Below, piece after piece: positions 2,452-64,000 of a DNA stretch of 64,000 bases. Made by a program: the position numbers and the translations under genes. The notes beneath the pieces were generated by a model. The model did not search any database. It was not told the DNA's origin and saw only the letters and a list, made by a program, of their open reading frames with translations. Every line of letters begins with the position of its first letter. Position 1 is the first letter of the stretch. This DNA is from Candidatus Gottesmanbacteria bacterium (GTDB lineage: Bacteria; Patescibacteriota; Microgenomatia; 2-02-FULL-39-11): positions 129,357 to 193,356 of the forward strand of contig JACPKY010000001.1 in NCBI GenBank assembly GCA_016186795.1. The letters are read 5' to 3'.

Positions 2452-3216
2452 CTATTTCAATACGTCCCCTTCCGGACGAGCAAAAACGATAAGCCGCTTA
2501 AGTGTCGTCCCGGGTGGCCAACACGTTTGCAGCGTTAATTGCTCATGAGTCGTTGGAACGGTTAAATAGTGGACTTCGGAGGGATCAACAATCAGTTTAT
2601 TGACTACCCGATAGATGTGTCTGTTTCCTTTATAAAACACATCGACTTCATCGCCGTTTTCCAGTTCTTTCAGGAGATAAAAAATAGCATTGTATCTTCC
2701 CACATTCCAAAATGCATCGGTTGAGTGGGCGAAAAGATAGATGTTTCCTGATATTCCCGGAAATACAGTACCTGCGGCGTGGGCAACGCCCTTTTCCAAT
2801 GTGGAAAGGTATTCATCGGGATTCCCAGCATCAACATTTGGGAAAATCGGAGCGTTTGCGCCAATTTTGGGTATGATGATACCAAACTGCGCAGAGACTG
2901 GTGACAGAACCTCGGTTTTATTCCCACCGGTAATATTTCCAAAAAATGTTGGTTTTCCAGAAGGGGTTGGAGTCACAAGAGATTCAAGGGAAGGTGAAGG
3001 CGTAATTTCTGTAACTGGAACTGTTTGGGTTGGATACTCAACAACATAACGAACATTTCTTGCAAGATTGATGCGGTAGAGAAATTCCAGATAGAAAGCC
3101 GGACCAAAGGTCATTGCCATGCCCCAGAGGGAAAAAAGGAGAAAGAAATTCCCAAGGGTTCGCAGGATAAGAAACTGGATTTGGTGACGGCTAAGTTTCA
3201 TAGGAACTTCTTCCAA
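2452..3216 (-). CDS. Sortase (transpeptidase) family protein
   Basis: N-terminal TM. Catalytic His (IYLFAHS) and TLxTC motif (QLTLQTCWP). Conserved Arg downstream. Confidence 0.75.
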   Translation of the reverse strand: MEEVPMKLSRHQIQFLILRTLGNFFLLFSLWGMAMTFGPAFYLEFLYRINLARNVRYVVEYPTQTVPVTEITPSPSLESLVTPTPSGKPTFFGNITGGNKTEVLSPVSAQFGIIIPKIGANAPIFPNVDAGNPDEYLSTLEKGVAHAAGTVFPGISGNIYLFAHSTDAFWNVGRYNAIFYLLKELENGDEVDVFYKGNRHIYRVVNKLIVDPSEVHYLTVPTTHEQLTLQTCWPPGTTLKRLIVFARPEGDVLK

Positions 3217-8699: not shown

Positions 8700-10012
8700 T
8701 ATTCAAACTTTAATAATTTTCTAAACCGTTCCTCTTCTTTATACGGTCCAATAACGGCTAAATTCAGTGTATCATGTTTGAAAATATCATTGGCAACCCT
8801 CGTTACATCGGAAAGAGTAACACTATCGATCTCTTTCATAATATCCTGGGGAGTCTTTATATCTTCTTCCAAAAGTTCCTCTGAAGAAAATAATGCTGCC
8901 ACATTTCTGCTATCCTCAAGTTCCAAAACAAATCGTCCTTTGAGATATTCTTTTGCCTTGACCAATTCCTCATTGGTAATACTATTAAGTCTGACTTTGG
9001 CAAATTCCTCAAGCATTACTTTTATCGCATCGTCAATCCGTGCAACATCAACTCCTGCTTGGGTGACAAAATTACCAACATCAACGTACTGCTCGTTGGA
9101 TGAACGTACATAGTATGCCAGTCCTCTTCGCTCTCGAACTTCAATAAAAAGTCGAGATGACATCCCGCCTCCAAGTATTGCAGTTAGCACTCCAAGTTTG
9201 TATCTGCTAGGGTGTGTCAAATAGTATGACCGAAAGCCCAAACACAAATGTGCTTGTTGTGTATCCTTATATTTAACTAGTACTTGTGGTTCATCTTGCT
9301 TATCAGTAACTTTTTCCGGCTGTTGAACTTTTTTCGTTTTCCATCGACCTAAAAACTGTTCTACAAGTTCAAGAATTTTTTCCTGACTCCATTTGGTTCC
9401 AGCCCCAACACCACCAGCAATAGCAACAATGGTATTGGCAGGGCCATAGAATCGATCAATATATTGTATGAAATCTTCTCTTTTGACACTTTTGATTACC
9501 TCTTTTCGACCAGAGATATCTCTTCCAAGCTTGGTATCCCCATAGAGAAGATTTTCATAAAGGTCACCTACCTTGCGCATTGGAGTATCCTCGTACATGT
9601 TGATTTCTTCAATAATGACTCCCCTCTCTTTCTCGATTTCGTTCGCGTCAAATTTCGAGTGGAGAAGCATATCAGAGAGAACGTCAAGCTGGAGAGGAAG
9701 GTGCTGGCTGGCAGCTTTAATGTAATAGCCTGTATGGTCTTTGGAGGTAAAAGCGTTGAATTCTCCGCCAATACCATCAATTAGTGATGAAATAGCAAGA
9801 GCAGATGGCCGATTCTGTGTGCCTTTAAAGGCCATGTGTTCCAGGAAATGGGAGATGCCGTTGATATTTTTCTCTTCATACCGAGATCCTGCCCCCACCA
9901 TGAGAAGAACAGTAACCGAAGCAACGCCTGGTACAGGAATCGTTACTAGCCTGAGATTATTGGGTAAAGTCTGCTTGTTGTACTGCATACAAACGCTGAA
10001 GAATCCTATCAT
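8699..10012 (-). CDS. M16-family zinc peptidase (insulinase-like)
   Basis: HFLEHMAFKGT inverted zinc-binding HxxEH motif. Typical ~430 aa. Start possibly at MQYNK (9988). Confidence 0.85.
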   Translation of the reverse strand: MIGFFSVCMQYNKQTLPNNLRLVTIPVPGVASVTVLLMVGAGSRYEEKNINGISHFLEHMAFKGTQNRPSALAISSLIDGIGGEFNAFTSKDHTGYYIKAASQHLPLQLDVLSDMLLHSKFDANEIEKERGVIIEEINMYEDTPMRKVGDLYENLLYGDTKLGRDISGRKEVIKSVKREDFIQYIDRFYGPANTIVAIAGGVGAGTKWSQEKILELVEQFLGRWKTKKVQQPEKVTDKQDEPQVLVKYKDTQQAHLCLGFRSYYLTHPSRYKLGVLTAILGGGMSSRLFIEVRERRGLAYYVRSSNEQYVDVGNFVTQAGVDVARIDDAIKVMLEEFAKVRLNSITNEELVKAKEYLKGRFVLELEDSRNVAALFSSEELLEEDIKTPQDIMKEIDSVTLSDVTRVANDIFKHDTLNLAVIGPYKEEERFRKLLKFE

Positions 10013-10100
10013 ACTAGATCAAATCCCAAAGGACAAGGGGGAAGAAAAGATCGGATTGCATGGCTTGTATTGGACGGGCGAATCCTATTATGATGGAGTT

Positions 10101-11966
10101 ATGGAAACAATTCAGATCCCCCCCGAGGCACAAGCTGCAAAAGAGTTCGTAACACAAAAACCGCAACTAACAGACATGTTTTCCATGGGTGAAAAATACG
10201 CTCGAGGATTTATGAGCGAAATGAACGGAGGATTGGCTGAAGATCTTGATGGCGCAAAAAACCCTCTTGATCGTGAGCTTGAAAAAGAGGGGGTTAATTT
10301 GGAAAATCTAAAAGAAGATGAAGCATTATGGATGATTCAAACATCTTTTGAGTCAATCATCGGAAAAGAAATACCATTTGGCACTCAAACAGATGAAAAA
10401 GTGCTTCTCGATACCTATTACGCATTAGGAAAAATCTATGGAGCAGTTTCTGAGCTTGATAGATCGGGAAAAACCCTTGTTGTTGGTCTAGAAAGAGATG
10501 AGGAAACTCTCAATAGCACATTTTCCTTCCGGACCGTTGAAAAAGCACTGATTGAAAAGGTCCAACTGAAGGGTGAAGAAGCAATCGTGACAGCAGAAAA
10601 AGCCCAAGCCCTTGCTGATATGCTCTCATTAAACCAAGACTATCTTGCTGTTGATCTTTTTGAGTGGTTCTCCATAGGAACTGTTGCCTGGAACGGTGAG
10701 GTACTTATGAATGAGCGTCAAAACAGATCAATTGTTACTGCAGAAGCTGATGAGCATAATAGACTGACTCGTTTTGAAACTGAACTTGTACCAATAGATA
10801 GATTTGCAAGAGTATTTCGTGAAGTCCGCGATGAAAGTACTTCTGAACTTGAGGAAATATTGGGAAGGGTGCACTATGATACCAAACGCGCAAGACAGAT
10901 CTTTGATCAACTTATATCTGACCTTTTGCAACGGCGCGGAAGAGAATCACAAAGTGGGACAATCATTACTGATCTTCTTGGAGAAGGAACAATCGATGAG
11001 AAAGAATTTTGGGTAAAAACGGGTAAAGATCTGAAGAAGAATATCAAGCTTTCACAAATTCCCAAACTTGCCCGAGGAGAAATTGCAACCCTTCTTCAAC
11101 AAAGACTCGATTCAGTCCGATACTCCGATACTGACCCTATTGCCGCACCACTTCGGAAGTGGATCATCGTCAAACTTGCAGAAAGTATAGGCTTAGCCCA
11201 AGCGAAAGAAGTATCAACCGGAAAAGAAATATTCGTTGCGGAAGATGATCCGAGACTTGGCCAAAAAGATGAACGTTCACGAAAAACCCTTGTCACCGGC
11301 ACATGTGATATGGAACTGCAAGGCTTAACCAAAACTCATAGGAGACATGAAAAAGAGGACTCTTTCGATATGGATAAAATTCTTGATACGGCAAGAGAAG
11401 TACAAAAACTTCTTGGACTTCCAAACCGTCATAGAGGACTTGCCGATAGCTTACCTGTTACAAATGTTATCGGCAAGGAAGCACATACCCTTGGAATTGG
11501 CAATCTTGATCTTGAATTGGAAATGTTTCTTGATGATGTTGTAAAAACTGCGCCGGATATTTCCCAATACTCTCAAGCGGCAATCCTTTCCGCATTTGCT
11601 CTTCGGGTGCAAGCTCTTGCCACTCTCAGAGCTGCAGAAAAACCACCTAATGGGAATAGTCGGGGAAAAGGTGAATTGCGCGGAAAAAATTACTGGAATG
11701 GGGTAAAACAAGGGTTCGTAATGGTGGCCCAAGAGCTGGGATATAACGAATCCGTATTTACTAATCCATTCAAAATTACCTACACGCAAACAGAAGATGG
11801 AATTCCTCATTCATTTCAATTCAACAGGAAAGGAAAAGAAATGGGTGCATCTATTTTCCCAGGGGATCAACCAGAGGATGAAATTATACGGCAAGCACAA
11901 GAAATCCTTGAGAATTGTTATGAAAGAAATGGGGTTATAACGAAGAAAGAAAGAGTAACCTCTTAG
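10101..11966 (+). CDS. Large hypothetical cytoplasmic protein
   Basis: ORF track gives 9741..11966, but that overlaps the convergent... actually divergent M16 gene start. First in-frame ATG after 10012 is 10101 (METIQ). A TTG at 10053 is also possible. No recognisable domains. Confidence 0.5.
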   Translation: METIQIPPEAQAAKEFVTQKPQLTDMFSMGEKYARGFMSEMNGGLAEDLDGAKNPLDRELEKEGVNLENLKEDEALWMIQTSFESIIGKEIPFGTQTDEKVLLDTYYALGKIYGAVSELDRSGKTLVVGLERDEETLNSTFSFRTVEKALIEKVQLKGEEAIVTAEKAQALADMLSLNQDYLAVDLFEWFSIGTVAWNGEVLMNERQNRSIVTAEADEHNRLTRFETELVPIDRFARVFREVRDESTSELEEILGRVHYDTKRARQIFDQLISDLLQRRGRESQSGTIITDLLGEGTIDEKEFWVKTGKDLKKNIKLSQIPKLARGEIATLLQQRLDSVRYSDTDPIAAPLRKWIIVKLAESIGLAQAKEVSTGKEIFVAEDDPRLGQKDERSRKTLVTGTCDMELQGLTKTHRRHEKEDSFDMDKILDTAREVQKLLGLPNRHRGLADSLPVTNVIGKEAHTLGIGNLDLELEMFLDDVVKTAPDISQYSQAAILSAFALRVQALATLRAAEKPPNGNSRGKGELRGKNYWNGVKQGFVMVAQELGYNESVFTNPFKITYTQTEDGIPHSFQFNRKGKEMGASIFPGDQPEDEIIRQAQEILENCYERNGVITKKERVTS

Positions 11967-11979
11967 GAAGATTTATTAT

Positions 11980-14900
11980 TTAATAGAGTATTTTCCAGAC
12001 TGTTTCATATCGCTTTTGTTGATAAAAATCAGCATAATTGCTCCTAATTGTATTCCAGTCTTTCCCATACCCGTCATACATCCAGCGGTATGTATCATAC
12101 GTTTTAGGATCATTTTTTGCTAACCAATTAGTTAAAGTTTTTAACGCCGCCTTTACCTGTGATTCTGTGGCATTGGGATCATGGAGAACTTCATATTCAT
12201 CAGCAAGGTCATCGGGAAAGTTTATTCCATCGAGTAATTTTATCGCATCACTTGCGCTTCTTCCACAAAACGTTGTCGTAATCGTATTTGATCCTCCTCC
12301 AAGAAACTGAGGAGGATATCCCCTTATAATACCTGCTTTTACTTCATCGTGACTTATAAGATTGATATCAACTAATTGAATCGCATGTCCATCGTCGGTA
12401 TATAAAATTAGCTCCATATCCTCAAGATCGCTCATTTTTTTCGTAATCTGAGCCTCGGTCAGTGGCCGCCTGCTGATGCCTCCTTCTAACCATTCACGTA
12501 TCCCTTCCATAGGCTCTCCTCTTCCTGCCCACAGTCCCGAATGAGGCCACATGATAATACCCCCATGAACATTTACTTGATAGGTTGCTGCGTAGTGAGG
12601 AGGTTCATGAATTTCCACCTTTGGATCATAAATTACTTTATCCAATCTTGACCCTGGACCAAATATCTCTGGATGGTTACTTGTCAAAGTTGTTGTCTTG
12701 TCAGGATAAAATCCAAATTGTGCCAGCATGTTGTCTGCCGTTGCCTTGGGGATTTTTTGGGACTCAATAATTCTTTCCCAATCCTGTGTTGTAGTAAGAT
12801 TTTGAGCCTTTCCAACTTCAATTGGCACCTGAACAACGCTTGCGTTTTCTCCGTTTGCTAAAGGTTCACCGTTTGGTCCAATTGGAATCTGGACTACTTG
12901 TGCTGGTTTGGAGACAACTGAACTGGCCGGACGGGTATATTCAGGCATTCCTGTTTCCTTATTGAAACGGATATCGGATTCACTTTCTCCCTGTGGACCA
13001 CTTGGAAGGTCTGGTTCTGTCTTTACAAGTTCAGCCATCCCAGTTTCCTTGTTGAAGACAAATTTCGATCCGCTGGTATTATTATTGTTTACAACCTCAT
13101 CTGGTTTAAGTTCAGCCTCTTCTTCAACTTCTGGGGCTTGACTACTTTTATCTGTAGCCTCAAAAACATCATCTTTCTTCTTCCCTTCTGGAAGAGTATT
13201 TGCTTCTTGATTTCCTTCTCCCTCTTGACTTGTTCCTCCCTCACTTTCCGGCTCAACAGGTGAAGATTCCTCAGTAACAGGGGGTGGAGGAGGAGCAACA
13301 GGCTTTTTCACCAATTCCATCATTCCAGTCTTCTTATTGAATTGAAATGTACCGCTATCAGTTGTAATAAGTTCATCAGTACCTAGTTTCTGGGCAGGAT
13401 CAACGGCAACTTCCTCATACATCCCTGTTTCTTTATTGAATACCAGAACTTTAACAGGTCCATCTGCCGGAGGGGCATTTGGTGGAACCTCTGGGGGAGA
13501 CTCTTGCCCACGCATATCTTGTAATTTTTTGATATATCCAAGATCTTCACCGGTTCTTCTCTCAAGATCTGCTAAGCGCTCTAATTGATGAATATCAATT
13601 GGTTTCACCATGATATCGGTTCGGACCGTTACGGCATCTCCCGGACTGATACTTATACTGCCCTCAATAAGGCCTTTGTTAGCAGCATAAAACTTTCCAA
13701 AAGATTTATCCGACCATTCCGGACTATTGACAAGTTCACGCAATTTCTGAGCATCGGAAAGGGAAATTTTCCCACGAGCAATAAATGTATCAAGGAAACT
13801 ATCAAGGACCGGTTTTGCGCTTCCTGCTTCTGAGTAAAAATCTTGGGTAAATAATCCGGCATCGATCATTGCTTTTGTAACGCTACTTCCCTTCTCTACG
13901 GTGAGAGTTTTGAAAGCTGAGGCTGCAACAGATTGAGGGGCACTCAATGGTGCATTTTCTGTAACAATATTTGGTTGCAAATTCCTAGCTGCAAGATTTG
14001 CTTTTACCTCTGCCATCTGCTCTTTCATTTGGGCTTGATCGACAGCTTCGGTAACTGTCTGTCCTCCAAGCGGATTTTGATTTCCTGCTGATGCCACATT
14101 AACATGTGCGTTAACTCCCTGTGTTGGGTTCGGATTGAGGAGTGACTGTTCTGCAACAGATGTTGTATATCCTGATGGGGTAGAAATATTTTTGCTAGTT
14201 GATAAAACATTGTATGTTGACTCTCCAAGTGCAACAGGTTTTCCCGTATCTACTACAGAAGACCCACTGTTGCCACTTGCCAAAGGATCATATTTGATTT
14301 CCGGTTCGACTACATTTTCATTTACTCTTTGAGCCTTCATGAAGGCTTGAACCTTGGCATCTCGCGCTGGATTAGGTTCAGTATCAGCTTGAGGTTTTGG
14401 AATATCATCCCCATTATGATCACCATGAGGAATAATTCCATGTGAGTCTTTTGGAAGTTGAGGAGGTTTAGGTGGAAGAGTATCATTAACAATTGTGACT
14501 CCGGCAACATTGGTGACAACTTTGCTATCTTGGACTATCTGAGGAGCATTTAGGACAGTTTGAGCAACATTGGCAACAACATCCTTGACATGCCCTGCTA
14601 CTTCAACTACCTTTTTCCCAACGTCAAAAAGACCAGCTCCTGCCGCAAATGCTGCAACACCCTTTCCTGCCCCGATAAGTCCAACCCCAACTGCAGAAAT
14701 AGCCCCTTCTCGTGCTGTATCTCGAAAAAATCCTCCTCGGACGCTTCTTCGTGATTTTTGCCACTCTTCTTCAAAGTCACCAACACCTTTCAAAACTCTC
14801 AGAGACTGCTTCAACAGCTTGTAGGCAGTTTCCCGGTCCTGTTGATCGACAGCTGTAATAGTTGCTTCCCGAAGGTGGCGGATATCTCGAATGAGTTCCT

Positions 14901-15762
14901 TCTGAGCCGTACGGACAACAAGAGCTTCTGGAGCTTTAGAGCGGAGCTTTTGCCTTGCGGAAGCTAAATACTCTCGATCGAGTTGTTCTGGAGAGGAAAG
15001 AGTATGAGTCCGCGCCTGATCCAAAACTCTGTCTCGAATACCTGTTTGGTAGGCAAACTCAACAACTTTCTCCTCACCACCATGAGCTATTGACCCTGCT
15101 AGGTGTTTTACTCCATGGAAGACTTTCTCTCTTCCTGAAGCTGTAGCAGAAAGGGGCTTTTCTCTACTTCGTGCCTCCCGATGTTTCCCCACTCGCTCTT
15201 GGTAATAGCCTCTTGGTCTTTTTTGGGCAAACTGAATGGTTTCGCGAACTGCTCTGGCTGTCCCTGCACCAGCTGCAACTGCTGCAAGCGCTGCAGGACT
15301 TGTCACTGCTCCAATACCACCAGCAATACTTACTACCTTAAGTCCAAGTTCAGTCTGGGTTGCTGCTCTTGCTGCAAATCCAGCTCCCGCTGCAAGACCC
15401 GTAGTTGTAATCCATTTGCCATATTTTGTGGCCGCTAACCGTGGATTCTCTCGAGCTAATTCTACTTCTTTTTGAAGAGTATGAACAACTTGTTCTCCGG
15501 TTCTTGTTGCAATGTGACCAGCAAGCGAAGCTACCTCACGAATACGGCTCCTATTCACTGCTGTTTGGGCAGTTTGAGCCATTTCTTGGGTAAATTCCGG
15601 TGATCCTACTGAAAGTTCTTTCGGAGAATGAAAGAGAGAAGAAAGGGCCCTACGGGCATCGGCAACTGAACGCTCATAGCCTGCATTGAGTTGGCCAAAG
15701 CCCTGAAGAAGTACATCTCCTGGGGCATGAAAAGATGCTGTTCGTGCGTATTCTGTGTTCAT
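11980..15762 (-). CDS. Giant hypothetical protein (1260 aa) with Gly/Ala-zipper segments and FNKETGM repeats
   Basis: Two glycine-zipper-like hydrophobic stretches (TGLAAGAGFAARAA..., AISAVGVGLIGAGKGVAAFAAGAG). Four copies of FNKETGM/FNKKTGM between Pro-rich linkers. Distinct ~280-aa C-terminal domain. Confidence 0.7.
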   Translation of the reverse strand: MNTEYARTASFHAPGDVLLQGFGQLNAGYERSVADARRALSSLFHSPKELSVGSPEFTQEMAQTAQTAVNRSRIREVASLAGHIATRTGEQVVHTLQKEVELARENPRLAATKYGKWITTTGLAAGAGFAARAATQTELGLKVVSIAGGIGAVTSPAALAAVAAGAGTARAVRETIQFAQKRPRGYYQERVGKHREARSREKPLSATASGREKVFHGVKHLAGSIAHGGEEKVVEFAYQTGIRDRVLDQARTHTLSSPEQLDREYLASARQKLRSKAPEALVVRTAQKELIRDIRHLREATITAVDQQDRETAYKLLKQSLRVLKGVGDFEEEWQKSRRSVRGGFFRDTAREGAISAVGVGLIGAGKGVAAFAAGAGLFDVGKKVVEVAGHVKDVVANVAQTVLNAPQIVQDSKVVTNVAGVTIVNDTLPPKPPQLPKDSHGIIPHGDHNGDDIPKPQADTEPNPARDAKVQAFMKAQRVNENVVEPEIKYDPLASGNSGSSVVDTGKPVALGESTYNVLSTSKNISTPSGYTTSVAEQSLLNPNPTQGVNAHVNVASAGNQNPLGGQTVTEAVDQAQMKEQMAEVKANLAARNLQPNIVTENAPLSAPQSVAASAFKTLTVEKGSSVTKAMIDAGLFTQDFYSEAGSAKPVLDSFLDTFIARGKISLSDAQKLRELVNSPEWSDKSFGKFYAANKGLIEGSISISPGDAVTVRTDIMVKPIDIHQLERLADLERRTGEDLGYIKKLQDMRGQESPPEVPPNAPPADGPVKVLVFNKETGMYEEVAVDPAQKLGTDELITTDSGTFQFNKKTGMMELVKKPVAPPPPPVTEESSPVEPESEGGTSQEGEGNQEANTLPEGKKKDDVFEATDKSSQAPEVEEEAELKPDEVVNNNNTSGSKFVFNKETGMAELVKTEPDLPSGPQGESESDIRFNKETGMPEYTRPASSVVSKPAQVVQIPIGPNGEPLANGENASVVQVPIEVGKAQNLTTTQDWERIIESQKIPKATADNMLAQFGFYPDKTTTLTSNHPEIFGPGSRLDKVIYDPKVEIHEPPHYAATYQVNVHGGIIMWPHSGLWAGRGEPMEGIREWLEGGISRRPLTEAQITKKMSDLEDMELILYTDDGHAIQLVDINLISHDEVKAGIIRGYPPQFLGGGSNTITTTFCGRSASDAIKLLDGINFPDDLADEYEVLHDPNATESQVKAALKTLTNWLAKNDPKTYDTYRWMYDGYGKDWNTIRSNYADFYQQKRYETVWKILY

Positions 15763-22716: not shown

Positions 22717-23088
22717 ATGTCTTTAAATATCCGGGAAATTTTCCAAAAACACGAATACGCAACTTTTCTTGTCGGCGGAATTGTAGGTTTTATCCTTCTT
22801 CTGATTGGACTCGGAGTAAGAAATATTACCGGCGGATCAAGTGCCACGCCAACACCAACTTTGACTCCTACTCAAACTCCAGCACCAACACAGATCCCTT
22901 CTCCAACTATTGGGAAAGAACCAACGGCAAAACCAACGGTCAAAACTCCAACCAAAACGCCAACGCCTTCATCTGGACCAACATCAAGTCAATCACCTTC
23001 GGCAACACCAACTACTGCACCCACAAATACCCCAGCTGCGACAAACACGCCAACAACAGCTCCACCAAGCGCAACTCCTACTTCTTAA
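22717..23088 (+). CDS. Membrane-anchored Thr/Pro-rich low-complexity protein
   Basis: N-terminal TM then TPTPTLTPTQTPAPTQ... repeats. Confidence 0.45.
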   Translation: MSLNIREIFQKHEYATFLVGGIVGFILLLIGLGVRNITGGSSATPTPTLTPTQTPAPTQIPSPTIGKEPTAKPTVKTPTKTPTPSSGPTSSQSPSATPTTAPTNTPAATNTPTTAPPSATPTS

Positions 23089-23089
23089 A

Positions 23090-23761
23090 TTATTCTGAAA
23101 CTGTGGGGGTAATTTCTCCAGTCGGAGAAATTGTCTCTACTACTGTGGGAGATATCTCGACAGAAGTCGGTTCTTGAGGAGTATGAGTCCCGGTTGGCAC
23201 TGAATCTATAATTGCCGAATGCCCATCTTCTTTCAACTCGCCGTTTACTCCATCGACAAAAATAACTTGAGATTCTGAAATGACAATTGATACGTCACTT
23301 TTTGCCTCTTTAATAATCTCAAATGAGAATGATGGAAGATTGACAACTCCTTGAGGAGCTGAATTTTCCGATTCTGCCCCATACAGTATTTTAAAACTCC
23401 CCTGATTATTGGCTTTCTCAGAATCTGTACCTTTCAAGAAACTCATACCATCTGCTTTTTTGGACGGATCGATTGATTGCAGTTTTAAATGACTTGAATC
23501 AAACCGGATACTTAAAAGTACTGAGGCAATTTTTCTATTTCCAATTCCAACAATTTTAGCGGCAACCGAAATTCTTTCTTCGACACTTCCCTTTTGCGAT
23601 TTAGGAAAAAGAGAAAGTTTTATTTCCCGATCGGAAACTGTTGCTTGAGTACGAGTTTCCTGTTTTTGTGTGGAGATATTTTGAGATAAAAAGACTGTAA
23701 GAACAGCAAGAACCGCTGTTGCGGCGATAATCGATCCAACATATATTTTTTTCTTACTCAT
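23090..23761 (-). CDS. N-terminally membrane-anchored cohesin-like beta-sandwich protein
   Basis: TM at N-terminus. ~140-aa beta-rich module (ISVAAKIVGIGNRKIASVLLSIRFDSSHLKLQSI). Start abuts the stop of the dockerin-bearing protease gene. Confidence 0.45.
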   Translation of the reverse strand: MSKKKIYVGSIIAATAVLAVLTVFLSQNISTQKQETRTQATVSDREIKLSLFPKSQKGSVEERISVAAKIVGIGNRKIASVLLSIRFDSSHLKLQSIDPSKKADGMSFLKGTDSEKANNQGSFKILYGAESENSAPQGVVNLPSFSFEIIKEAKSDVSIVISESQVIFVDGVNGELKEDGHSAIIDSVPTGTHTPQEPTSVEISPTVVETISPTGEITPTVSE

Positions 23762-26700
23762 TAGAACTCCATTGCGTCCAAAAGAATCTTCAAATCATTC
23801 TGATCAACTTTCCCATCTCCGTTGAAGTCTCCATCTTGATGGCCACGGGTTGTCGTCCTACCGTTATTTCTTAACCAGATAGTATAGTCTACTCCATCAA
23901 CCCGATTATCACCATTCGCATCACCCAAGACTTGTGGTTTCGGGGTGGATGTTGCGGAAGGAATACCCTGAGAACGAACTGTTGGAGAAGGAATAACCGT
24001 TGGTATGCGAGTCGGGGTTGGCGATGCGACCGAACTCTCCGGTAGGAAAGTACTGCCAGCTGATGACCCTCGCTTTATATAAAACCATAGATGTGTCCCT
24101 TGCAAAGTATTCTCTGGACTATTGAGATAGTTTTTGTCGTTTATCGCAACAAAGATATTTGGTTGACAGGTGCCATCAGTTTTCCCATTCCCTGCTCTAT
24201 TTGGATACTCTTTCTTGGGATAGCGGACAACCCACCCAGTACAAACAAATCCATTCGGAGGTGTAAAGGTGATGGATACCCGTCCAGGATTTTTCTCATC
24301 AATTCGGAAGTACTCGGTCTTGTAGACCATATCAGACCGTGGTAAGAATCGTGTTTGAGGCTTTTGACAAATCCACTCGCTATTTCTCGTTCCACCCAAT
24401 TGGTAACTTACCTGAAGATCCTGAGATTGAGAAACTCCAGTGCATACTGGCGGCCGGTGACCCCAGAAAATAATATCTTGAAATGATGAAACTCCGCTTT
24501 CTGTCAAGGACTCATTTACAATAGTATTGGTATCGATAATTCTTCGCGTTTCCCGTATCTTCCCAACGACCGATCCCAAAGCAACTAGAGATGGTGAGGG
24601 AGTCGGCGTGCGTGTCACTGTTGGGGTGGGTGTTTTTGTTGCCGTCGGTGTTGGTGTCCGAGTCGCAGTAGGAGTGGCCGTTGGCGTGGGAGTTCTGGTT
24701 GGAGTTGGTGTTGCAGTAAGAGACGGTGTCGGAGTTCTAGTTGGAGTTACCGTTGGGGTGGGAGTACGTGTAGGTGTAGGACTCGGTGTTTTTGTCGGAG
24801 TTATTGTTACGGTAGGAGTTGCGGTTGCCGTCGGTGTTGGCGTACGAGTGGATGTCGGCGTAGGCGTACGAGTAGGAGTTGGTGTCCTTGTAGGTGTAGC
24901 AGTTGGCGAAGAAGTCACAGTAAGAAATGGCGTCGGAGTTCTGGTTGGGGTTGGAGTGCTTGAGGGAGTAACTGATGGAGCTATAGAAGGACTGCAGGTA
25001 CATAAACTATCATCTGGACATACATTATTTCTGCACTGCAAAACAAATGGGTCACAATAGAAAGATGTGCATTCACTATCGCTTGTGCAATAATTATTGC
25101 ACGAAAGATTTGTTACTGGAGATGGTGTCGGAGTAAGTGTTGGAGGCGAAACAAAAATCACGGTAACGGGAATAGAGGTAATAGCGCTATTTTGCCCAAG
25201 TCGAGCGATCACAAAAATATCGCCATTACCAGATTCCTGTGGAATAAATGATGTCAGATCACCACTTGTCCTGGTAAGGGTGCCAATGGCAAAGGGCTCT
25301 CTCGAACTTATCCCCCACTCATAGGTAACGCCTGAAAAGATCGGTTGAGAATTTATGTCATAGGCAAGAGCAGAAATATTTACAGGACTTCCTCCAAGAT
25401 CAACAGAAATAATCTCCGGATTAACTCTGACATATGCAAGCGTTTGACTAGGTGCTGGAGTCGGTGTAGGTGTTTTTGTGCTGGTTGGAGTAGGTGTTTT
25501 TGTAGGAGTTGGAGTCCTAGTAGGTGTAGTAGTCTGGGTTGGAGTACGCGTCACTGTTGGGGTGGGTGTTTTTGTTGGGGTTGGAGTTTTGGTTGGTGTT
25601 AAGGTATGAGTCGGAGTTATTGTCAATGTTGGACTTGTCGAAATTGACGGTATTGGTGTGAATGTGGGATACGCTGTCACAAAGGGAATTATCAACACTT
25701 GCGCGGTTGTCATGTAGTACCACCAGTTATTTTTGTGGCCTAAACTATCAACTCCGGATACATGAGGAACATGTGAGAACATCCATCGTAGATAATTGTA
25801 TTCACTATTTTCCGGACATCCCCATGTTTGACAATTTATATTTTGAGCTTCTTGAGACAGATTTGGATAAGAGGTAAAACTCTCACATTGCGAAGGTACT
25901 GTTTGACTATTTGCGTAATCATAATCAATATCGGCATTGGCAGGATTATGAGTGTCTCCACAGCCAAACACCGATTGACTGGAATAATTGTGTTTGTTTG
26001 AGCGGAAATCTCCCCAACTTATGCCATAGCTATTTCTTGTGTATCCGATATACCTATCAAAGATAGCTTCAGCTCTATGACCCATATCATGAAGCATGGA
26101 ATCCATCCCTCGTTCATAATTAAAGCCCATGATGTGAATTGGTCTTTGACAATTTACATTGGAAACGACTGGACCATTGGTCCAAAATGCTCCAGTACCG
26201 GCCATATTTGCTTCAAAGAAACCAGTTCGAGGCGGTCCAGTGATCCAAAGCTCATCTATCTCTCCCCGATTTACCATCTCGCAAATATTTTGTTCCAGTA
26301 AAATTTTAGTGTAATTGGCAAAATCATTACTTGGTGGCTCATTGCATGGACCTTTCCCTTCCAAACAAGCAAATAATGTTTCACCTGTATAGTCAAATCC
26401 ATTTTGTTTTTCCGGCATATCATCAAGTTCTCTTATTCCAACAATTTGATATTTCACCCGACCATGACTTACTTCCTCCAATTCGCGAGCATACTGATCT
26501 ATCTGTTCATACGGATTATTCCAATTGTAATAATCAATAAGAGATCCGTTATTTAGGGATGGAACTTTTGGGTTATAGATAAGGGCAAATACTCGCGGGA
26601 AAACATATTCTTGTTGCCCAGTTGGGGTAGGAGAAAGGAAGGGAGTCGGTGTAGATGATATCAAAGGATTTTGAGTCGGTGTTGGTGTTCTTGTAGGAGT

Positions 26701-28926
26701 AGGCGTTCGAGTCGGCGTCACTGTTGGTGTATTTGTGGGAATACAACTGGCTGGCGCAATAGTAGGTGTAGCACCGGCTTGTGTCGTCTCTATATAGGGT
26801 GTAAAGTGGAAATCGACTATATCTGCACCCCAACTCGTCCCGCTATTGTTGGATGTAAATGGTTGCCCGGACGGATTGGCATAACAGCTGCTACTATTTG
26901 AAAACTGCCATGAGTAGGATCCACCGGTATTGGAAAGAATAAGAGCGTAAAGTTGGCCTTGCTGTATAGAAACTGCGGGAGAAAACGTAAATATATTTCC
27001 GCAAAGAACATTTGTGGATGCTATATCTGCCCCTGTTGGATATCCATTGAGAGTTGCACGAAGATGAAGGGTCGTCGTACCAGCGCCTCTAGTGCCGGCA
27101 ATAGCAACATGTGTGAGAAACCCGGATTTGGTTGGAACAAACGTTTGCGCCTTCCAGACAGTATTTGTTACTTGTGTTGTAGATGTGGAAACTGATGAGC
27201 ATGCCTGATCTTGAAATGTATATGAACTGCCAGTTGGGACAACTGAAGCAGTCGGAGTAGGTGTACGAGTTGGAGTGGGAGTTCTAGTAAGAGTAGGAGT
27301 AGGGGTAAAGGTAAGAGTAGGAGTACTAGTGGGATTTGGGCTAACTGTATTGGTAGGTGGCGCAATGGCGGAAATGGCAGCATTGGCATTTACTTTTCCT
27401 TTTGACCAATATGTTCCTGTACCCAATATTGAATCTGCTGTATTTTCCAAAACATCCCTAACTCCTTGATTGGAAAAATTTGGGGAAAGATGCCAAATGA
27501 GTGCGGCAATCGCTGAAACAAAAGGTGTGGACTGAGATGTCCCGGCTGCCCATGCATAAGATTCAGCATACAAAGGGTCATAGTTTGTAGAAAAAATACA
27601 GTCAATATAATTATCTATAGTACAATCGCCCCCAGGAGCTGCTACATCAACCCAAGATGCGCTATATTCAGAATATGATGCTTTCTGCCCATTTCTATCC
27701 GTTGCTGCAACAGCAATCACTTGGGAATAGGCTGCAGGATACATTACAGGATTTGTTGAGTCACAATTGGGATGATCGGAAGGATTTCCACAGTTTCCCG
27801 CTGCTGCAACAAGCAAGAATCCGGCATTCCAAGCACGCCCAATAGCACTTTGTATTGAAACTGATGGATATTCTCCCGCAAGACTCATATTGATAACAAC
27901 TTTTTTCCCTGAGTAAGCTGATATAACTTGATCAATCCCGGCAACCAATGATGAGGTAAAAACCGAACCGTATTGATTGGCAACTTTTACTGAAACCAGT
28001 TTTGTCTCAAAACCTGTTCCGGCAATACCAATTCCATTATCGGTCAGAGCAGCCGCAATTCCTGCAACGTGCGTCCCATGCCATAAATCGTCGCCACCGC
28101 CTGAAACACACGGTAAAGAAATACAGTTATACCAGGCAAGAACCTTCGAAGATATATCCGGATGAACCGTACTTATGCCCGAATCCAGAACTGCAATTAA
28201 AACGTTGCCCGAACTATCTCCCCGCGTTTTATCCCAAGCATTAAAGGCAGAAATATCTGGAAGTGCCCATTGGTATGAATTTATAAACTCATCATTGGGT
28301 AAATAGGATGTATGAAGAATGTAGTCTGGTTCAGCATACTCAACCTCGGGAAGAGTTTTATAGTCAGCAATTACTTGAGAGATATCAACGTCTTGAGAAA
28401 GTGGTTGTTTTGCGATAACGAGCTCTTCTCCTTGCAATGCCGATTCGATCAGTGAATTTCTTTCTTCAACTTTGGTGATTGCCGCAATTTTTTCTTCCGG
28501 AAGCTTCCCGCCTGTTAAACGTGTGCCAAAATCAGTAAGTTCCTGAATTGCTGCGCCAAGGAGAGTACTTCTGGTATTTTCTCTTTGAGAAGCAATTCGA
28601 TGTAAAGCAGAAAGCGACTGGCCTGATTTGTATTTTACAATTACTCGATCAGTGGCATAGGGAATACCTCCAGTTTCGGAACTTGCCGAATGAAAAAATC
28701 CACCTTCAGGAATTTGTTGTGAAGGTGGCAGGGGTTTTTTAGGTTTAGAAGTCGGTTTTGCTTTGGCTGGTGGTCTAACTGTTGGTTTTGAGGTAGGTGC
28801 TTTCGATGGCGAGGGATTTTGTGCAGAGACTTCTGATGTATAAAAATTTAACAGGATTCCCGCACTTACAACAAGAACTATGCCGAAAATCCAAGGCAGT
28901 TTCCGCATAGTTCTACTTTGATACAC
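23761..28926 (-). CDS. Giant secreted subtilisin-like (S8) serine protease with TP-rich linkers and C-terminal type-I dockerin
   Basis: Signal peptide. Asp (AVLDSGI), His ([11 protein letters not shown]), Ser ([16 protein letters not shown]) triad. C-terminal [16 protein letters not shown]...[17 protein letters not shown] calcium-binding dockerin repeats. Cys-rich and HDMGH-containing middle domains. Confidence 0.85.
24560..24960. repeat. Tandem PTxT(R/K)TPTPT linker repeats inside the S8 protease gene
   Basis: Repetitive acNggNgt periodicity. Generates spurious antisense ORFs (VGVGV...). Confidence 0.8.
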
Positions 28927-28948
28927 TTACAAGGGGAAGTCAAGGAGA

Positions 28949-28968
28949 GTATTTCACATGTGAAATAC
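28949..28968. promoter_or_regulatory. Perfect 20-bp palindrome gtatttcacatgtgaaatac between argS stop and protease start
   Basis: Read directly. Terminator for argS or operator for the protease gene. Confidence 0.35.
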
Positions 28969-32780: not shown

Positions 32781-33731
32781 TTACTGACCGGCAGGGGTTG
32801 TTGGTTGAACTTGCGCACCTCCCGTTGCCCCGGTTGGAACAACTTCCTTCTCCATCGCTTTGGGTGTGGTAGTCACTTTTGGCTTTGGTTGTGCTAAAGC
32901 TTCTTTGGTTGTCGTGATAACCTCAACAACTGGGGCTTTTGCCCAAGCAGCAACTGCTGCGGTTGTATACTGCGGTGTCCCGTTTGCTGCAACTGGTACG
33001 AGTGCGAAGTAGTACTTTACACCGGGAGTAAGGTATCCAACTGTGAACCAACGTATGTTACCCATATTCAAGAGGCCATACTGATATGATCCCGCTTTGG
33101 TTCCATATACCAGGTGATAGTTTTCGGCTCCTGAAACATTGGTCCAGTAAAGAGTTACTTGCCCCACCTTTGGACCTGCCTTGGCCCACAGTTTCTCGGC
33201 TCCAACTGGTCCGCCTGTCTTTGCCGAAACTGTTGGTTGAGCTGCCGCTTGGTCTTTTTTCACAGTCGGCGCACCTACTTTTGTATCCATCGATGCTGTT
33301 GAAACAACACCGCCTGCCGCAACCGCCCAGACTTCGCCAGAAAATGGACTTGAGGCACCATTGTGAGCTGCAATCATCCGGAAGTAGTATTTCACTCCTG
33401 GAGTAAGACTCTTGACGGTGTATTTTCTACTCATTTCACCGCCAATGTTTTCTGCTCCATATATGTATGTATTAGTCTTTGTTCCGTATGCAACACCGTA
33501 ACGGTCCGCGTAGTTGACGCCTTCCCAATAGATTGTAACTTCTCCCGCTTTTGGACCTGATTTTGCCCATACTTTTTTTGGAGCTTCCGGTCTTAACCCC
33601 CCCGAGGAATCACCGGCGTACACTTTGGAAGGAGCAAGGATTGACCCAACTCCCGCAATTCCCAATATTAATACCAGGAAGGAAAATGAGTAGATTTTTT
33701 TCATATACTTCAACTTTCTAGTAATTTTCAC
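32781..33731 (-). CDS. Secreted protein with two fibronectin type-III-like repeats
   Basis: Signal peptide. Duplicated VT(I/L)YW..YxxxYGTK..Y..LTPGVKYYF modules. Confidence 0.6.
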   Translation of the reverse strand: MKITRKLKYMKKIYSFSFLVLILGIAGVGSILAPSKVYAGDSSGGLRPEAPKKVWAKSGPKAGEVTIYWEGVNYADRYGVAYGTKTNTYIYGAENIGGEMSRKYTVKSLTPGVKYYFRMIAAHNGASSPFSGEVWAVAAGGVVSTASMDTKVGAPTVKKDQAAAQPTVSAKTGGPVGAEKLWAKAGPKVGQVTLYWTNVSGAENYHLVYGTKAGSYQYGLLNMGNIRWFTVGYLTPGVKYYFALVPVAANGTPQYTTAAVAAWAKAPVVEVITTTKEALAQPKPKVTTTPKAMEKEVVPTGATGGAQVQPTTPAGQ

Positions 33732-33956
33732 AGTCTGTCAAGGACTAATTAAATATAAATAAAAATATACAAAGGTAACAAAATATATCAATCCAAATGG
33801 AAAGTCCATTTCCTTTTCCCAACTCTCTCTTGACAGCGTGAATAAATGTGTGAAATGCTAGAACCAGTAAGGAAAACCTACAAAATAAATATGACCAGTT
33901 GGTAACAACAGACGGTGAACCTGAAAAGACGGTTTTCTTGTAGGTGGTTTTTTCAT

Positions 33957-36395
33957 ATGGCACGTCGCAAAAAGAAATCAATCGCAAAAAAAGTACAACT
34001 CCATAGCATGAGACCTATGGAATCGCTTCATGCCTTTCTTCGAAGCATAAATCTCTCAATAGTGAAAAAGACTTCTCCACGGATTAGCCAAAGGACGAAG
34101 AAAGTGAAGGGAAAATTGATGGTAACGAAAAACCTGAAAAAGCGAGGATTTTCACAATCAACATCCGTTCAATTATTCCTTACCGAATTCCACCGCTCAA
34201 AGACAAACACTCATATAACACTCACGAAAAAGAAAGAGACGCTTTCAAAACTTCCATCACAAACAGGAATATTTCTCAAGACATTTTGGAGCAGAAACCA
34301 AAGAGTAATTATTCCAATCGTTGGAATAGGTTTCATCGCAAGCGGAACATTCTACTTTTATATCCTTCGAGATCTCCCTTCACCGTTTACTCTTTCTTCC
34401 CAGCATATTGCGCAGACAACGATTATACGGGATCGCAATGGAATCGTTTTGTATAAAGTCTACAAAGACGCAAACCGCGTTAAAATGACATGGGATGAAA
34501 TCCCAACAGTCGTGAAAAATGCAACAATTGCCATTGAAGATGCCGATTTTTACCGCCATAACGGAATTTCTCCCAAAGCAATTGTCAGGGCATTCCTCTA
34601 CAACCTTCAGCAAACAAATATCAATACCTATCAAGGGGGTTCTACTATCACCCAGCAATTAGTAAAAAACAGGCTCCTCAATCAACAGAAAACATATAAA
34701 CGGAAAGCTCAAGAAATTATTCTAGCCCTAGCAACCGACCTTCTCTATTCAAAAAAAGAAATCCTCAACATGTATCTCAATGAAGTAGGTTACGGAGGTC
34801 CGGCATATGGGATTGAGTCGGCCGCACAGATGTATTTCGGAGTACATGCGAAAGACTTGAGTTTAGCTCAAGCAGCATTCCTTGCTGGTCTTCCGGCTGC
34901 CCCAACGACATTTTCTCCTTTTGGCACAAATCCGCACCTATCAACAATTCGGCAGCAGCAAGTTCTTGATAGGATGTTAAACCTTTCCATGATCTCCAAA
35001 ACTGCGTATGATCAAGCACGAAATGAACTCCTTGTTTTTGCTGCACAAAAAATTGATATCTTGGCTCCCCATTTCGTAATGTTTGTCAAAGACCAACTGG
35101 TGACGCAATTGGGTGAAAATGTTGTCGTCGGCGGAGGCCTTGATGTTATTACTACTCTTGATTATTCCATTCAGCAAAAGGCAGAAGAGGTAGTGAAAAA
35201 GCAAATAGAAAGTATGGGAAAAGGCTACAATATCCATAATGGCGCAGCTCTTGTCACCGACCCGCAAACAGGAGAAATCTTAGCCATGGTTGGATCACAG
35301 GATTACTTTGATGTTGCAAACAAAGGCCATGTCAATGTCACAACAGCTCTTCGACAACCTGGCTCTTCCATAAAAGTAGTCAATTACGCCTACGCCTTTG
35401 ACCATGGCTATACTCCCAATAGCGTTATTGAGGACTCACCGGTTGTGTTTGTAGCACCAGGTGCGACCGAACGGTATGCACCACAAAATTACGATTCGAA
35501 ATTCCATGGGAACGTCACCTTTCGGTCGGCATTGGCAAATTCCTACAATATTCCTGCTGTAAAAATCCTCAATCGGATTGGGGTTCCCAACATGCTTGAG
35601 CAGGGAAGAAAGATGGGGATACGAAGCTGGAATGATCCACCTCCTATCGGGCTTTCGCTCACATTAGGAGGGCTTGAGGTAACCATGCTTGATATGGCAC
35701 GAGTCTACGGAACACTGGCAAATCAAGGGGTGAGGAAAGAGTTGAAGTTCATAAAAGAGATTCGGGATAGTGACCAATCTGACCTGACAAAACTTTTTTA
35801 TGAAAAAAGCAAAGACCTATCGCTTATCGGAAGTGTCGAGGCAGAAGAAAATGCTCAAGTCGTTTCCCCTCTTGCCGCTTATTGGCTGACAGACATCCTT
35901 GCCGATAACAACGCCCGGCTTCCAGCCTTTGGACGGTATGCAAAGCTATCAGTACCTGGACATAAAGTCGCTGTGAAAACAGGAACATCAAATAATTTCC
36001 GGGATAACTGGACGATCGGCTTCTCACCAAACTATCTTGTGGCAACGTGGGTTGGCAATAGTGATGGAACGTACATGAACAAAAATCTTGTTTCAGGCAT
36101 AACAGGAGCTGCCCCAATTTGGCATGAAATTATGTCATCTCTCCTTTCCGATGTTGAGGCAAAGGAATTCTCTGTCCCTGAAGGACTCATTCCAATTAAA
36201 GTTTGTGCAGTCAATGGCCTTCTTACCTGCCCCAACTGTCCGCAGGAGAAAATAGAGTACTTTGCCGCTGATAAAGTCCCAACGAAACAGTGCTATTTCA
36301 GATCTGCCTCAGACTGTGCTTCTGCCAAGCAGCAAGCAGAAGGAAAATCTGAGGAAGAAAAAAAGCAACTCCTTGCCGGATGCTTCGCAAACTAA
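33957..36395 (+). CDS. Class A penicillin-binding protein (transglycosylase + transpeptidase)
   Basis: GT51 motifs EDADFYRHNGIS and GGSTITQQLVKN. Transpeptidase SxxK (GSSIK), SYN, KTGT. ORF opens at 33915. RBS-supported ATG at 33957. Confidence 0.85.
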   Translation: MARRKKKSIAKKVQLHSMRPMESLHAFLRSINLSIVKKTSPRISQRTKKVKGKLMVTKNLKKRGFSQSTSVQLFLTEFHRSKTNTHITLTKKKETLSKLPSQTGIFLKTFWSRNQRVIIPIVGIGFIASGTFYFYILRDLPSPFTLSSQHIAQTTIIRDRNGIVLYKVYKDANRVKMTWDEIPTVVKNATIAIEDADFYRHNGISPKAIVRAFLYNLQQTNINTYQGGSTITQQLVKNRLLNQQKTYKRKAQEIILALATDLLYSKKEILNMYLNEVGYGGPAYGIESAAQMYFGVHAKDLSLAQAAFLAGLPAAPTTFSPFGTNPHLSTIRQQQVLDRMLNLSMISKTAYDQARNELLVFAAQKIDILAPHFVMFVKDQLVTQLGENVVVGGGLDVITTLDYSIQQKAEEVVKKQIESMGKGYNIHNGAALVTDPQTGEILAMVGSQDYFDVANKGHVNVTTALRQPGSSIKVVNYAYAFDHGYTPNSVIEDSPVVFVAPGATERYAPQNYDSKFHGNVTFRSALANSYNIPAVKILNRIGVPNMLEQGRKMGIRSWNDPPPIGLSLTLGGLEVTMLDMARVYGTLANQGVRKELKFIKEIRDSDQSDLTKLFYEKSKDLSLIGSVEAEENAQVVSPLAAYWLTDILADNNARLPAFGRYAKLSVPGHKVAVKTGTSNNFRDNWTIGFSPNYLVATWVGNSDGTYMNKNLVSGITGAAPIWHEIMSSLLSDVEAKEFSVPEGLIPIKVCAVNGLLTCPNCPQEKIEYFAADKVPTKQCYFRSASDCASAKQQAEGKSEEEKKQLLAGCFAN

Positions 36396-60205: not shown

Positions 60206-64000
<3,795 letters not shown>

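Follow-up and report, generated by a model that had tools for sequence, protein, structure and literature searches.

The subject of this report is a pair of overlapping genes in a 64-kb stretch of DNA (hereafter the window, meaning the whole of it) from a member of Candidatus Gottesmanbacteria, a lineage of the Microgenomates group of the Patescibacteria and thus one belonging to the candidate phyla radiation (CPR). The source organism is an ultra-small groundwater bacterium; CPR bacteria in general are abundant and uncultured, are generally described as limited in biosynthetic capacity and are thought to live attached to other cells. The first gene of the pair codes for a giant protease of the S8 (subtilisin) family that ends in a dockerin, and the second for a small protein with a single cohesin module behind an N-terminal hydrophobic helix. 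Profile searches, structure prediction and a comparison of related loci lead us to propose that the two products probably form a cognate pair, in which the cohesin would hold the secreted protease on the cell surface.

Organization of the gene pair

Three features define the pair:

23761..28926, minus strand: gene of the giant dockerin-bearing S8 protease; the maximal open reading frame (ORF) is 1721 amino acids (aa) long and starts at a GTG
23759..23763, minus strand: TAATG junction of the protease stop and the cohesin-gene start, a 1-nucleotide (nt) overlap
23090..23761, minus strand: gene of the single-cohesin protein, 223 aa

An earlier note, made from the letters of the sequence, had described an ORF of 1721 aa and a second one beginning at its stop. 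Both ORFs and their overlap hold: on the minus strand the junction reads GAGTTCTAATGAGT (longer context ATGGAGTTCTAATGAGTAAG), and the final A of the protease TAA is the A of the cohesin ATG. One small point probably needs correction, the start of the 1721-aa frame. An alternative ATG at 28908 (M7) gives a product of 1715 aa, and this is probably the true start because the protease gene call in an independent assembly is likewise 1715 aa and the orthologue in a related locus, L001, begins at the equivalent Met; residue numbers below follow the 1721-aa frame. The cohesin gene has a GGAG 5 nt upstream of its ATG, which together with the TAATG overlap forms the usual signature of translational coupling, suggesting that the two genes are probably co-translated. 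The 223-aa product is identical to NCBI MBI2616660.1 (HYW55_00840) from Candidatus Gottesmanbacteria, where it is annotated as 'hypothetical protein'.

The same-strand gene upstream of the protease encodes arginyl-tRNA synthetase, whose stop is separated from the protease ORF by a 43-nt gap. Inside this gap, at 28944..28965, lies a perfect 22-nt palindrome, AGTATTTCACATGTGAAATACT, possibly an operator or an RNA hairpin, and after it comes a promoter-like TTGACT...TATCAA stretch that overlaps the GTG start. Scans for promoters and terminators around the protease-cohesin operon gave nothing better than shuffled controls. At the other end, 1 nt separates the cohesin gene from a convergent gene (22717..23088, plus strand) that codes for a predicted membrane protein of 123 aa with no family match, and two related loci, L001 and L002, have a 126-aa gene in the same position.

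The protease and its dockerin

The protease can be divided as follows, from its N-terminus to its C-terminus:

28825..28908, minus strand: predicted Sec-type signal peptide, the only hydrophobic segment of the protease, with a cleavage site between VSA and Q
28282..28704, minus strand: N-terminal propeptide region, Fervidolysin_NPro-like and of the I9 type (Pfam 26.8 bits, cut-off 21)
27352..28206, minus strand: catalytic domain of the Peptidase S8 family, thermitase-like, whose D248, H283, oxyanion N378 and S464 are all in place
26779..27228, minus strand: module A, aa 567-716, 65% identical to the L001 orthologue
25702..26613, minus strand: module B, aa 772-1075, which holds HDMGH (aa 946-950, nt 26077..26091)
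25141..25449, minus strand: module at aa 1160-1262 (about 100 aa), beta-rich as judged by eye and missing from the L001 orthologue
24988..25116, minus strand: eight-cysteine module, aa 1271-1313, conserved in L001
24061..24588, minus strand: module C, aa 1447-1622, with 57-60% identity in L001 and in a further related locus, L003
23764..23928, minus strand: C-terminal dockerin, aa 1667-1721, with two calcium-binding loops

The earlier note had read this product as a subtilase with two canonical calcium-binding dockerin repeats at its C-terminus, and had named three profiles by which the pair could be checked, Peptidase_S8, Dockerin_1 (PF00404) and Cohesin (PF00963). All three score above their Pfam cut-offs, and the description of the protease is borne out in both its parts. 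The Peptidase_S8 match (aa 241-498, 154.9 bits) contains the catalytic triad in the order D-H-S and the oxyanion Asn, within the motifs VLD248SG, H283GTHVAG, AAGN378 and GTS464. Its closest solved relative is thermitase (1thm, E 6.5e-50), and NCBIfam returns only sub-threshold S8 relatives, for instance mycosin with 150 bits against a cut-off of 279. The signal peptide would be cleaved after VSA, and that of the L001 orthologue is equivalent, ending in IYA before a Q. Judged by these sequence features, the protease is a secreted, thermitase-like S8 subtilase with an intact active site.

At its C-terminus, the Dockerin_1 match (aa 1667-1715) scores 24.0 bits against a cut-off of 22.9 and covers two perfect 12-residue DxNxDxxxDxxD calcium loops, which begin at residues 1669 and 1700 and hence lie 31 residues apart. 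They form the duplicated segment typical of dockerins, an EF-hand-like loop with D or N at positions 1, 3, 5, 9 and 12 followed by a helix. Both loops are kept in the orthologues and in the related locus L005, and they are the only such motifs in a six-frame translation of the window; neither a second dockerin nor a second cohesin was found in its 64 kb.

About 1200 residues connect the S8 domain to the dockerin; they comprise five modules and, between these, Pro/Thr linkers that add up to about 325 residues, or 19% of the protease. No significant Pfam match was obtained for any of the five (module B has none even at E ≤ 10), and neither the protease nor its modules match a glycoside hydrolase or carbohydrate-binding module (CBM) in Pfam. 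The Cys-rich and HDMGH-containing inserts to which the earlier note had drawn attention are present, as the eight-cysteine module and within module B, respectively. In the L001 orthologue the corresponding part of module B reads HSYGHR, leaving a kept pattern H-x-x-G-H-R-x-E, and the two proteins further have EIDE[LV]W, CGD-x-H-x-P-x-N and NCQ-x-WGC in common. A profile search of the PDB with this module gave only spurious cytochrome c3 matches (E>0.04), and its single-sequence AlphaFold2 (AF2) model has a predicted local distance difference test score (pLDDT) of 33.6. HDMGH was also considered as an HExxH-like zinc metallopeptidase motif and dropped: the orthologue has HSYGH, with the acidic second position not conserved, and there is no Pfam or PDB match.

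Module C precedes the dockerin in all three orthologues (window, L001 and L003). In the type II/III X-dockerin dyad an X module directly abuts the dockerin; here about 45 linker residues lie between module C and the dockerin, and module C matches neither a known X module nor any sequence in the PDB. The internal modules are possibly substrate-binding. Their complement is not fixed: the 2602-aa orthologue in L001 (320..8128) shares with the window protease the S8 domain, modules A, B and C, the cysteine module and the dockerin, and gains a Laminin_G_3 domain and a large region of NHL repeats. Together with the absence of the module at aa 1160-1262, this indicates that the middle of the cargo has been reshuffled between close relatives.

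The single-cohesin protein

Four segments are distinguished in the 223-aa protein:

23684..23746, minus strand: N-terminal hydrophobic helix, aa 6-26 (AF2 helix 9-26), with KKK before it; putative signal-anchor
23642..23665, minus strand: juxtamembrane motif KQETRTQA, family consensus Q-[DE]-[TI]-R-x-x-A, in which A40 is nearly invariant
23222..23641, minus strand: cohesin module, aa 41-180
23093..23221, minus strand: disordered Pro/Thr-rich C-terminal tail, aa 181-223, ending in PTVSE

The earlier note had suggested a beta-sandwich resembling a cohesin, and had put this forward as the point on which its reading would stand or fall. AF2 predicts a confident beta-sandwich core at aa 41-180 (pLDDT about 90) followed by a disordered tail (aa 181-223). 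When this model was compared with the PDB using Foldseek, 49 of the 50 listed matches were cohesins, comprising types I, II and III as well as the cohesin-like modules of Clostridium perfringens, with E-values from 1.5e-6, target-normalised TM-scores (template-modelling scores) of up to 0.67 and sequence identities of 10-19%. The Pfam Cohesin profile matches residues 54-178 over profile positions 6-130 of 139 and, with 25.5 bits against a cut-off of 24.1, passes by a small margin. Hence the protein has both the family match and the jelly-roll beta-sandwich of about 140 residues that characterize cohesins, and the suggestion made from the sequence stands. In NCBIfam there is no family for this protein, and no signal model there matches either the juxtamembrane motif or the RNLxLEEFY motif described below.

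In the N-terminal part, the run of lysines ahead of the helix points to an N-in orientation, and on these features we infer that the protein is held in the membrane by this helix, which would not be cleaved. A regular-expression search of the ORFs of the window showed the juxtamembrane motif to be essentially confined to the cohesin protein, and so no signal in general use in this genome; possible roles are those of a cleavage site or of the start of the domain. At the other end, the protein closes with TPTVSE and has no LPXTG, no C-terminal transmembrane or other hydrophobic segment and no Pfam match to the S-layer homology (SLH) domain, by which cellulosomal anchoring proteins are typically attached to the cell surface. 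Four close relatives keep the ending as PTV[SP]E(E).

Word-index homologue searches with two alignments of the family retrieved only 4 and 7 proteins, and a full HMMER scan over 1.84 billion representatives was needed to recover it more completely. This yielded 106 cluster representatives at E ≤ 1e-3 (47 at E ≤ 1e-10), which were combined with the window protein, its close relatives and a further sequence, P0110, into a set of 110 sequences. Of these, 83 are at most 320 aa long, 103 have an N-terminal hydrophobic segment and only 3 a C-terminal one. The consensus Q-[DE]-[TI]-R-x-x-A, with its nearly invariant Ala, follows the helix across the family (P0005-P0109). One subfamily additionally has a conserved cytoplasmic extension of 30-45 residues with the motif RNLxLEEFY before the helix, and the keeping of this motif argues that the N-terminus is retained. 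Distant members pass the Pfam Cohesin cut-off independently (29.2 bits in locus L064, 26.9 in L066 and 29.1 in L008). A search for related loci with one of these two alignments found nothing in the genome contigs of species representatives, and so the lineage of this genome is apparently not among these.

Dockerin-cohesin adjacency in related loci

To count as informative, a related locus had to include the DNA upstream of the cohesin-family gene. Eight independent loci do so, namely the window, L001, L003, L004 and L005 (taken as one), L008, L064, L065 and L066, and in every one of the eight a dockerin-ending ORF lies directly upstream of that gene. The adjacency is kept down to about 25% cohesin identity, and the cargo varies from locus to locus:

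Window: 1721-aa S8 protease; 1-nt overlap
L001: 2602-aa S8 protease with modules A, B, Cys and C plus Laminin_G_3 and NHL; 43-nt gap
L003: C-terminal part only, module C and dockerin; 40-nt gap
L004/L005/L006: stop-to-stop ORF of up to 888 aa; 1-nt gap; cohesin 25% identical to that of the window
L008 (4501..12149 of MFJU01000019.1, Candidatus Gottesmanbacteria RIFCSPLOWO2_01_FULL_42_22): 553-aa S8-dockerin protease; cohesin-family genes next to it
L064, L065, L066 (metagenome): dockerin-ending ORFs, one of them with fn3; spacing to the cohesin gene between a 4-nt overlap and about 26 nt

The pair in the window is thus not unique to its locus and represents one instance of a recurrent CPR gene pair. 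In L008 four genes follow that of the protease. The product of each has an N-terminal helix and contains cohesin-family modules (one to three) and/or dockerin-like repeats at the C-terminus, an arrangement that looks like a scaffoldin-like network around a protease. Of the remaining loci, L002 ends at the contig edge upstream of its cohesin gene, and in the contig of family member P0042 an unannotated upstream gene stops 6 nt before the cohesin gene. Loci of Planctomycetota that were recovered with a dockerin alignment have no nearby gene of this cohesin family.

Other combinations of these modules were seen in passing. L007 (2..6999 of MFJF01000029.1, Candidatus Gottesmanbacteria) contains five tandem ORFs with dockerin repeats, one of which has a calcineurin-like phosphoesterase domain, and no cohesin within the 7 kb available. 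L020 (4756..6174 of the Parcubacteria contig VMFS01000005.1) is a single 473-aa ORF with Cohesin, fn3-like and Dockerin_1 domains, preceded immediately by a cohesin ORF, and in L061, on a Bathyarchaeota contig, a stretch of 6 kb includes a dockerin ORF together with two cohesin ORFs that Pfam recognises. Both L004 and the P0042 contig have a small Phage_int_SAM_1 gene in the neighbourhood of their cohesin genes.

Proposed mechanism and alternative readings

We consider it probable that the dockerin and the cohesin are a cognate pair by which the secreted protease is tethered to the cell surface, a reading to which the earlier note had come from this locus, and for which the adjacency in every checkable related locus offers independent support of a comparative kind. 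The protease would be exported by way of its cleavable Sec signal peptide and would then lose its N-terminal propeptide, as other subtilases do. Because the dockerin is at the opposite end, the catalytic domain would stay tethered after this step, the active thermitase-like domain remaining joined to the C-terminal dockerin through about 1200 residues. The small protein encoded downstream would sit in the cytoplasmic membrane by one helix (N-in, C-out) and expose its one cohesin, into which the dockerin would plug; by analogy, the mutual binding of the two modules would depend on Ca2+. The protease would consequently be kept on the cell by a long, flexible tether. If the approximately 325 linker residues were extended at about 0.3 nm per residue, the active site could, by this estimate, lie roughly 100 nm from the membrane and digest external or host-surface proteins, either in scavenging or in attack on the surface of a host. 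With a single cohesin and a single dockerin in the window and no glycoside hydrolase or CBM match in the protease, this is not a cellulosome, in agreement with the earlier note: the hallmarks of a cellulosome are a multi-cohesin scaffoldin, carbohydrate-active enzymes and usually a CBM, and the window does not present this set.

Several observations weigh against the tether. The Dockerin_1 and Cohesin scores in the window exceed the Pfam cut-offs by only 1-1.5 bits; precomputed annotation records no Pfam match for the three closest relatives of the cohesin protein; a profile of four cohesin sequences matches no PDB sequence even at E ≤ 10, for which reason the cohesin assignment rests on fold and context; and the AF2 model of the cohesin was itself built from an alignment of four sequences only. 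The marginal scores and the missing PDB match would fit a reading in which the 223-aa protein were a generic beta-sandwich (a CBM or an Ig-like domain) or a chaperone or inhibitor of the protease, with the dockerin repeats acting only as calcium stabilisers. This role is suspected for many orphan dockerin-like repeats of Planctomycetota, and the scan with the dockerin alignment mostly gave loci from that phylum, without this cohesin family nearby. We nevertheless hold such a reading to be highly improbable, since the structural matches are almost all cohesins and not CBM or Ig domains, the distant members of the family cross the Pfam Cohesin threshold by themselves, and in the CPR loci the dockerin is always accompanied by a cohesin gene. 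The modules might also be genuine and the adjacent cohesin not the partner of this dockerin, the true partners being encoded elsewhere, for example on other surface proteins or on a host cell, and the adjacency reflecting co-regulation only. The four downstream genes of L008 with their cohesin modules and/or dockerin-like repeats, the five dockerin ORFs of L007 with no cohesin in view and the union of cohesin and dockerin in one polypeptide in L020 imply that cross-specific networks exist in CPR, and our census of dockerins and cohesins covers 64 kb of the genome, so that true partners may lie elsewhere. Against this stand the presence of exactly one dockerin and one cohesin in the window and their adjacency, often with a spacing of 0-1 nt, in all eight informative loci despite the changing cargo, which is the pattern of a cognate pair; on balance a mismatch of partners seems to us distinctly unlikely.

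The remaining alternative concerns the anchor. An R-x-x-A 14 residues past the helix fits a possible signal-peptidase site, in which case the protein would be released and not anchored, and our confidence in the membrane anchor is for this reason lower than in the tether as such. Cleavage would fall between T-Q-A and T, leaving T at -3 and A at -1 in agreement with the signal peptidase I rule, and the motif, with its nearly invariant Ala, is conserved across the family immediately before the cohesin domain; the complex would then be soluble, or the Pro/Thr tail, whose ending is itself conserved in the four close relatives, would bind it to the wall or S-layer. The motif, however, lies about 14 residues beyond the hydrophobic core, farther than is usual for Sec cleavage, the conserved RNLxLEEFY extension of one subfamily would be hard to explain if the N-terminus were discarded, and the tail contains no SLH, LPXTG or other known wall-binding signal. 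We thus regard secretion of the cohesin as rather unlikely and retain the anchored tether as the preferred interpretation.

A broader proposal, which we make tentatively and would not ourselves bet on at even terms, is that the pair belongs to a lineage-wide system by which CPR bacteria (Patescibacteria) arm their surface. It would consist of a dedicated family of small, membrane-anchored single cohesins with a conserved juxtamembrane motif of its own, each member encoded directly after, and often translationally coupled to, a secreted dockerin-tagged cargo, with the cargoes interchangeable and the system expanded to networks in L008. Such cargoes may include giant and minimal S8 proteases, fn3 proteins and perhaps phosphoesterases, the last seen only in L007, where no cohesin gene is in view. 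If this were true, ultra-small episymbionts could display long-tethered enzymes that act on the surface of their hosts. Should the two modules bind, they would provide, for the question of how CPR bacteria equip their surface, a concrete and easily testable mechanism for keeping a large protease on cells whose biosynthesis is very limited, as well as a compact cassette of cargo and anchor whose specificities could add orthogonal pairs for designer enzyme assemblies.

Other genes in the window

The window further contains a sortase gene (2452..3216, minus strand), the cohesin protein being without a recognisable sortase signal; a gene for a class A penicillin-binding protein with Transgly and Transpeptidase domains (33915..36395, plus strand); and one for an fn3-containing secreted protein (32781..33731, minus strand). 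At its end, an ORF of more than 1264 aa (60206..64000, plus strand) runs off the window and combines a Phage_int_SAM_1 domain (aa 110-197) with collagen-like GXY repeats (Collagen, 263.8 bits); these repeats explain a jump in GC content to 63.5% and strong skews at 62-64 kb. Two large ORFs, of 1260 aa (11980..15762, minus strand) and 741 aa (9741..11966, plus strand), have no Pfam match at E ≤ 0.001.

Comparison with known systems

The components of the pair would show in routine domain annotation, its mechanism is of the textbook kind, and the working principles of cohesin and dockerin are left unchanged by it. The closest parallel is an S8 protease of Clostridium (Acetivibrio) thermocellum whose double dockerin, dDoc_0689, binds the cohesin carried by cell-bound ScaD (Chen et al. 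2024, as summarized in review PMC12484212). Both cases have a subtilisin-family protease with C-terminal dockerin(s) and a proposed anchoring at the cell surface via a cohesin, outside an enzyme scaffold. Unlike that system, the window has one dockerin instead of a tandem, belongs to a CPR bacterium and shows no cellulosome components; the gene for the cohesin comes right after that for the protease and overlaps it; the protease, of about 1700 aa, contains five unassigned modules; and the cohesin is carried by a protein of 223 aa that has a single hydrophobic helix at its N-terminus and in which no SLH domain was detected. Small single-cohesin surface proteins that tether a dockerin-bearing enzyme are likewise familiar from OlpA and OlpC of C. 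thermocellum (type I) and ScaE of Ruminococcus flavefaciens (type III), and the cohesins of all three (3ul4, 4dh2 and 2zf9, respectively) are among the Foldseek matches. These are attached by C-terminal SLH repeats or by sortase through LPXTG, whereas the protein in the window, at 10-19% identity, has neither and carries an N-terminal helix instead; accordingly it does not have the features of an SLH- or sortase-attached anchoring scaffoldin.

Cohesin and dockerin modules outside cellulosomes are also known in their own right. Reportedly, a survey of such modules in bacteria and archaea was made by Peer et al. 2009. They occur in anaerobic methanotrophic (ANME) archaea and in Archaeoglobus fulgidus, and according to PMC9012536 binding has been shown for archaeal pairs; the amylosome of Ruminococcus bromii is another non-cellulosomal system (PMC4611034). 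Resembling the pair in this respect, such modules are found in organisms that are not cellulose degraders, joined to varied domains and often without large scaffoldins. In the searchable literature we found no paper on a cohesin-dockerin system in CPR bacteria or Patescibacteria, and in the same literature, with the survey by Peer et al. outside the comparison, no description of a strict cassette of a cargo-dockerin gene and a transmembrane-cohesin gene. Giant extracellular proteins of the dockerin type have been described in Omnitrophota, ultra-small and possibly predatory or symbiotic bacteria, with a proposed action on the surfaces of other cells (West-Roberts et al., bioRxiv 10.1101/2023.11.21.568195). 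Those proteins have at least 30,000 aa, many dockerin and thrombospondin repeats, C-terminal transmembrane anchors and no dedicated adjacent cohesin gene, in contrast to the 1.7-kaa (thousand aa) protease of the window with its one terminal dockerin and its partner cohesin gene. Thus, we class the pair with the non-cellulosomal cohesin-dockerin surface tethers and not as a new mechanism; within this class it is set apart by the type of its anchor (an N-terminal helix with no SLH or LPXTG), by its strict two-gene cassette, by the lineage in which it occurs and by the size and unassigned modules of its cargo.

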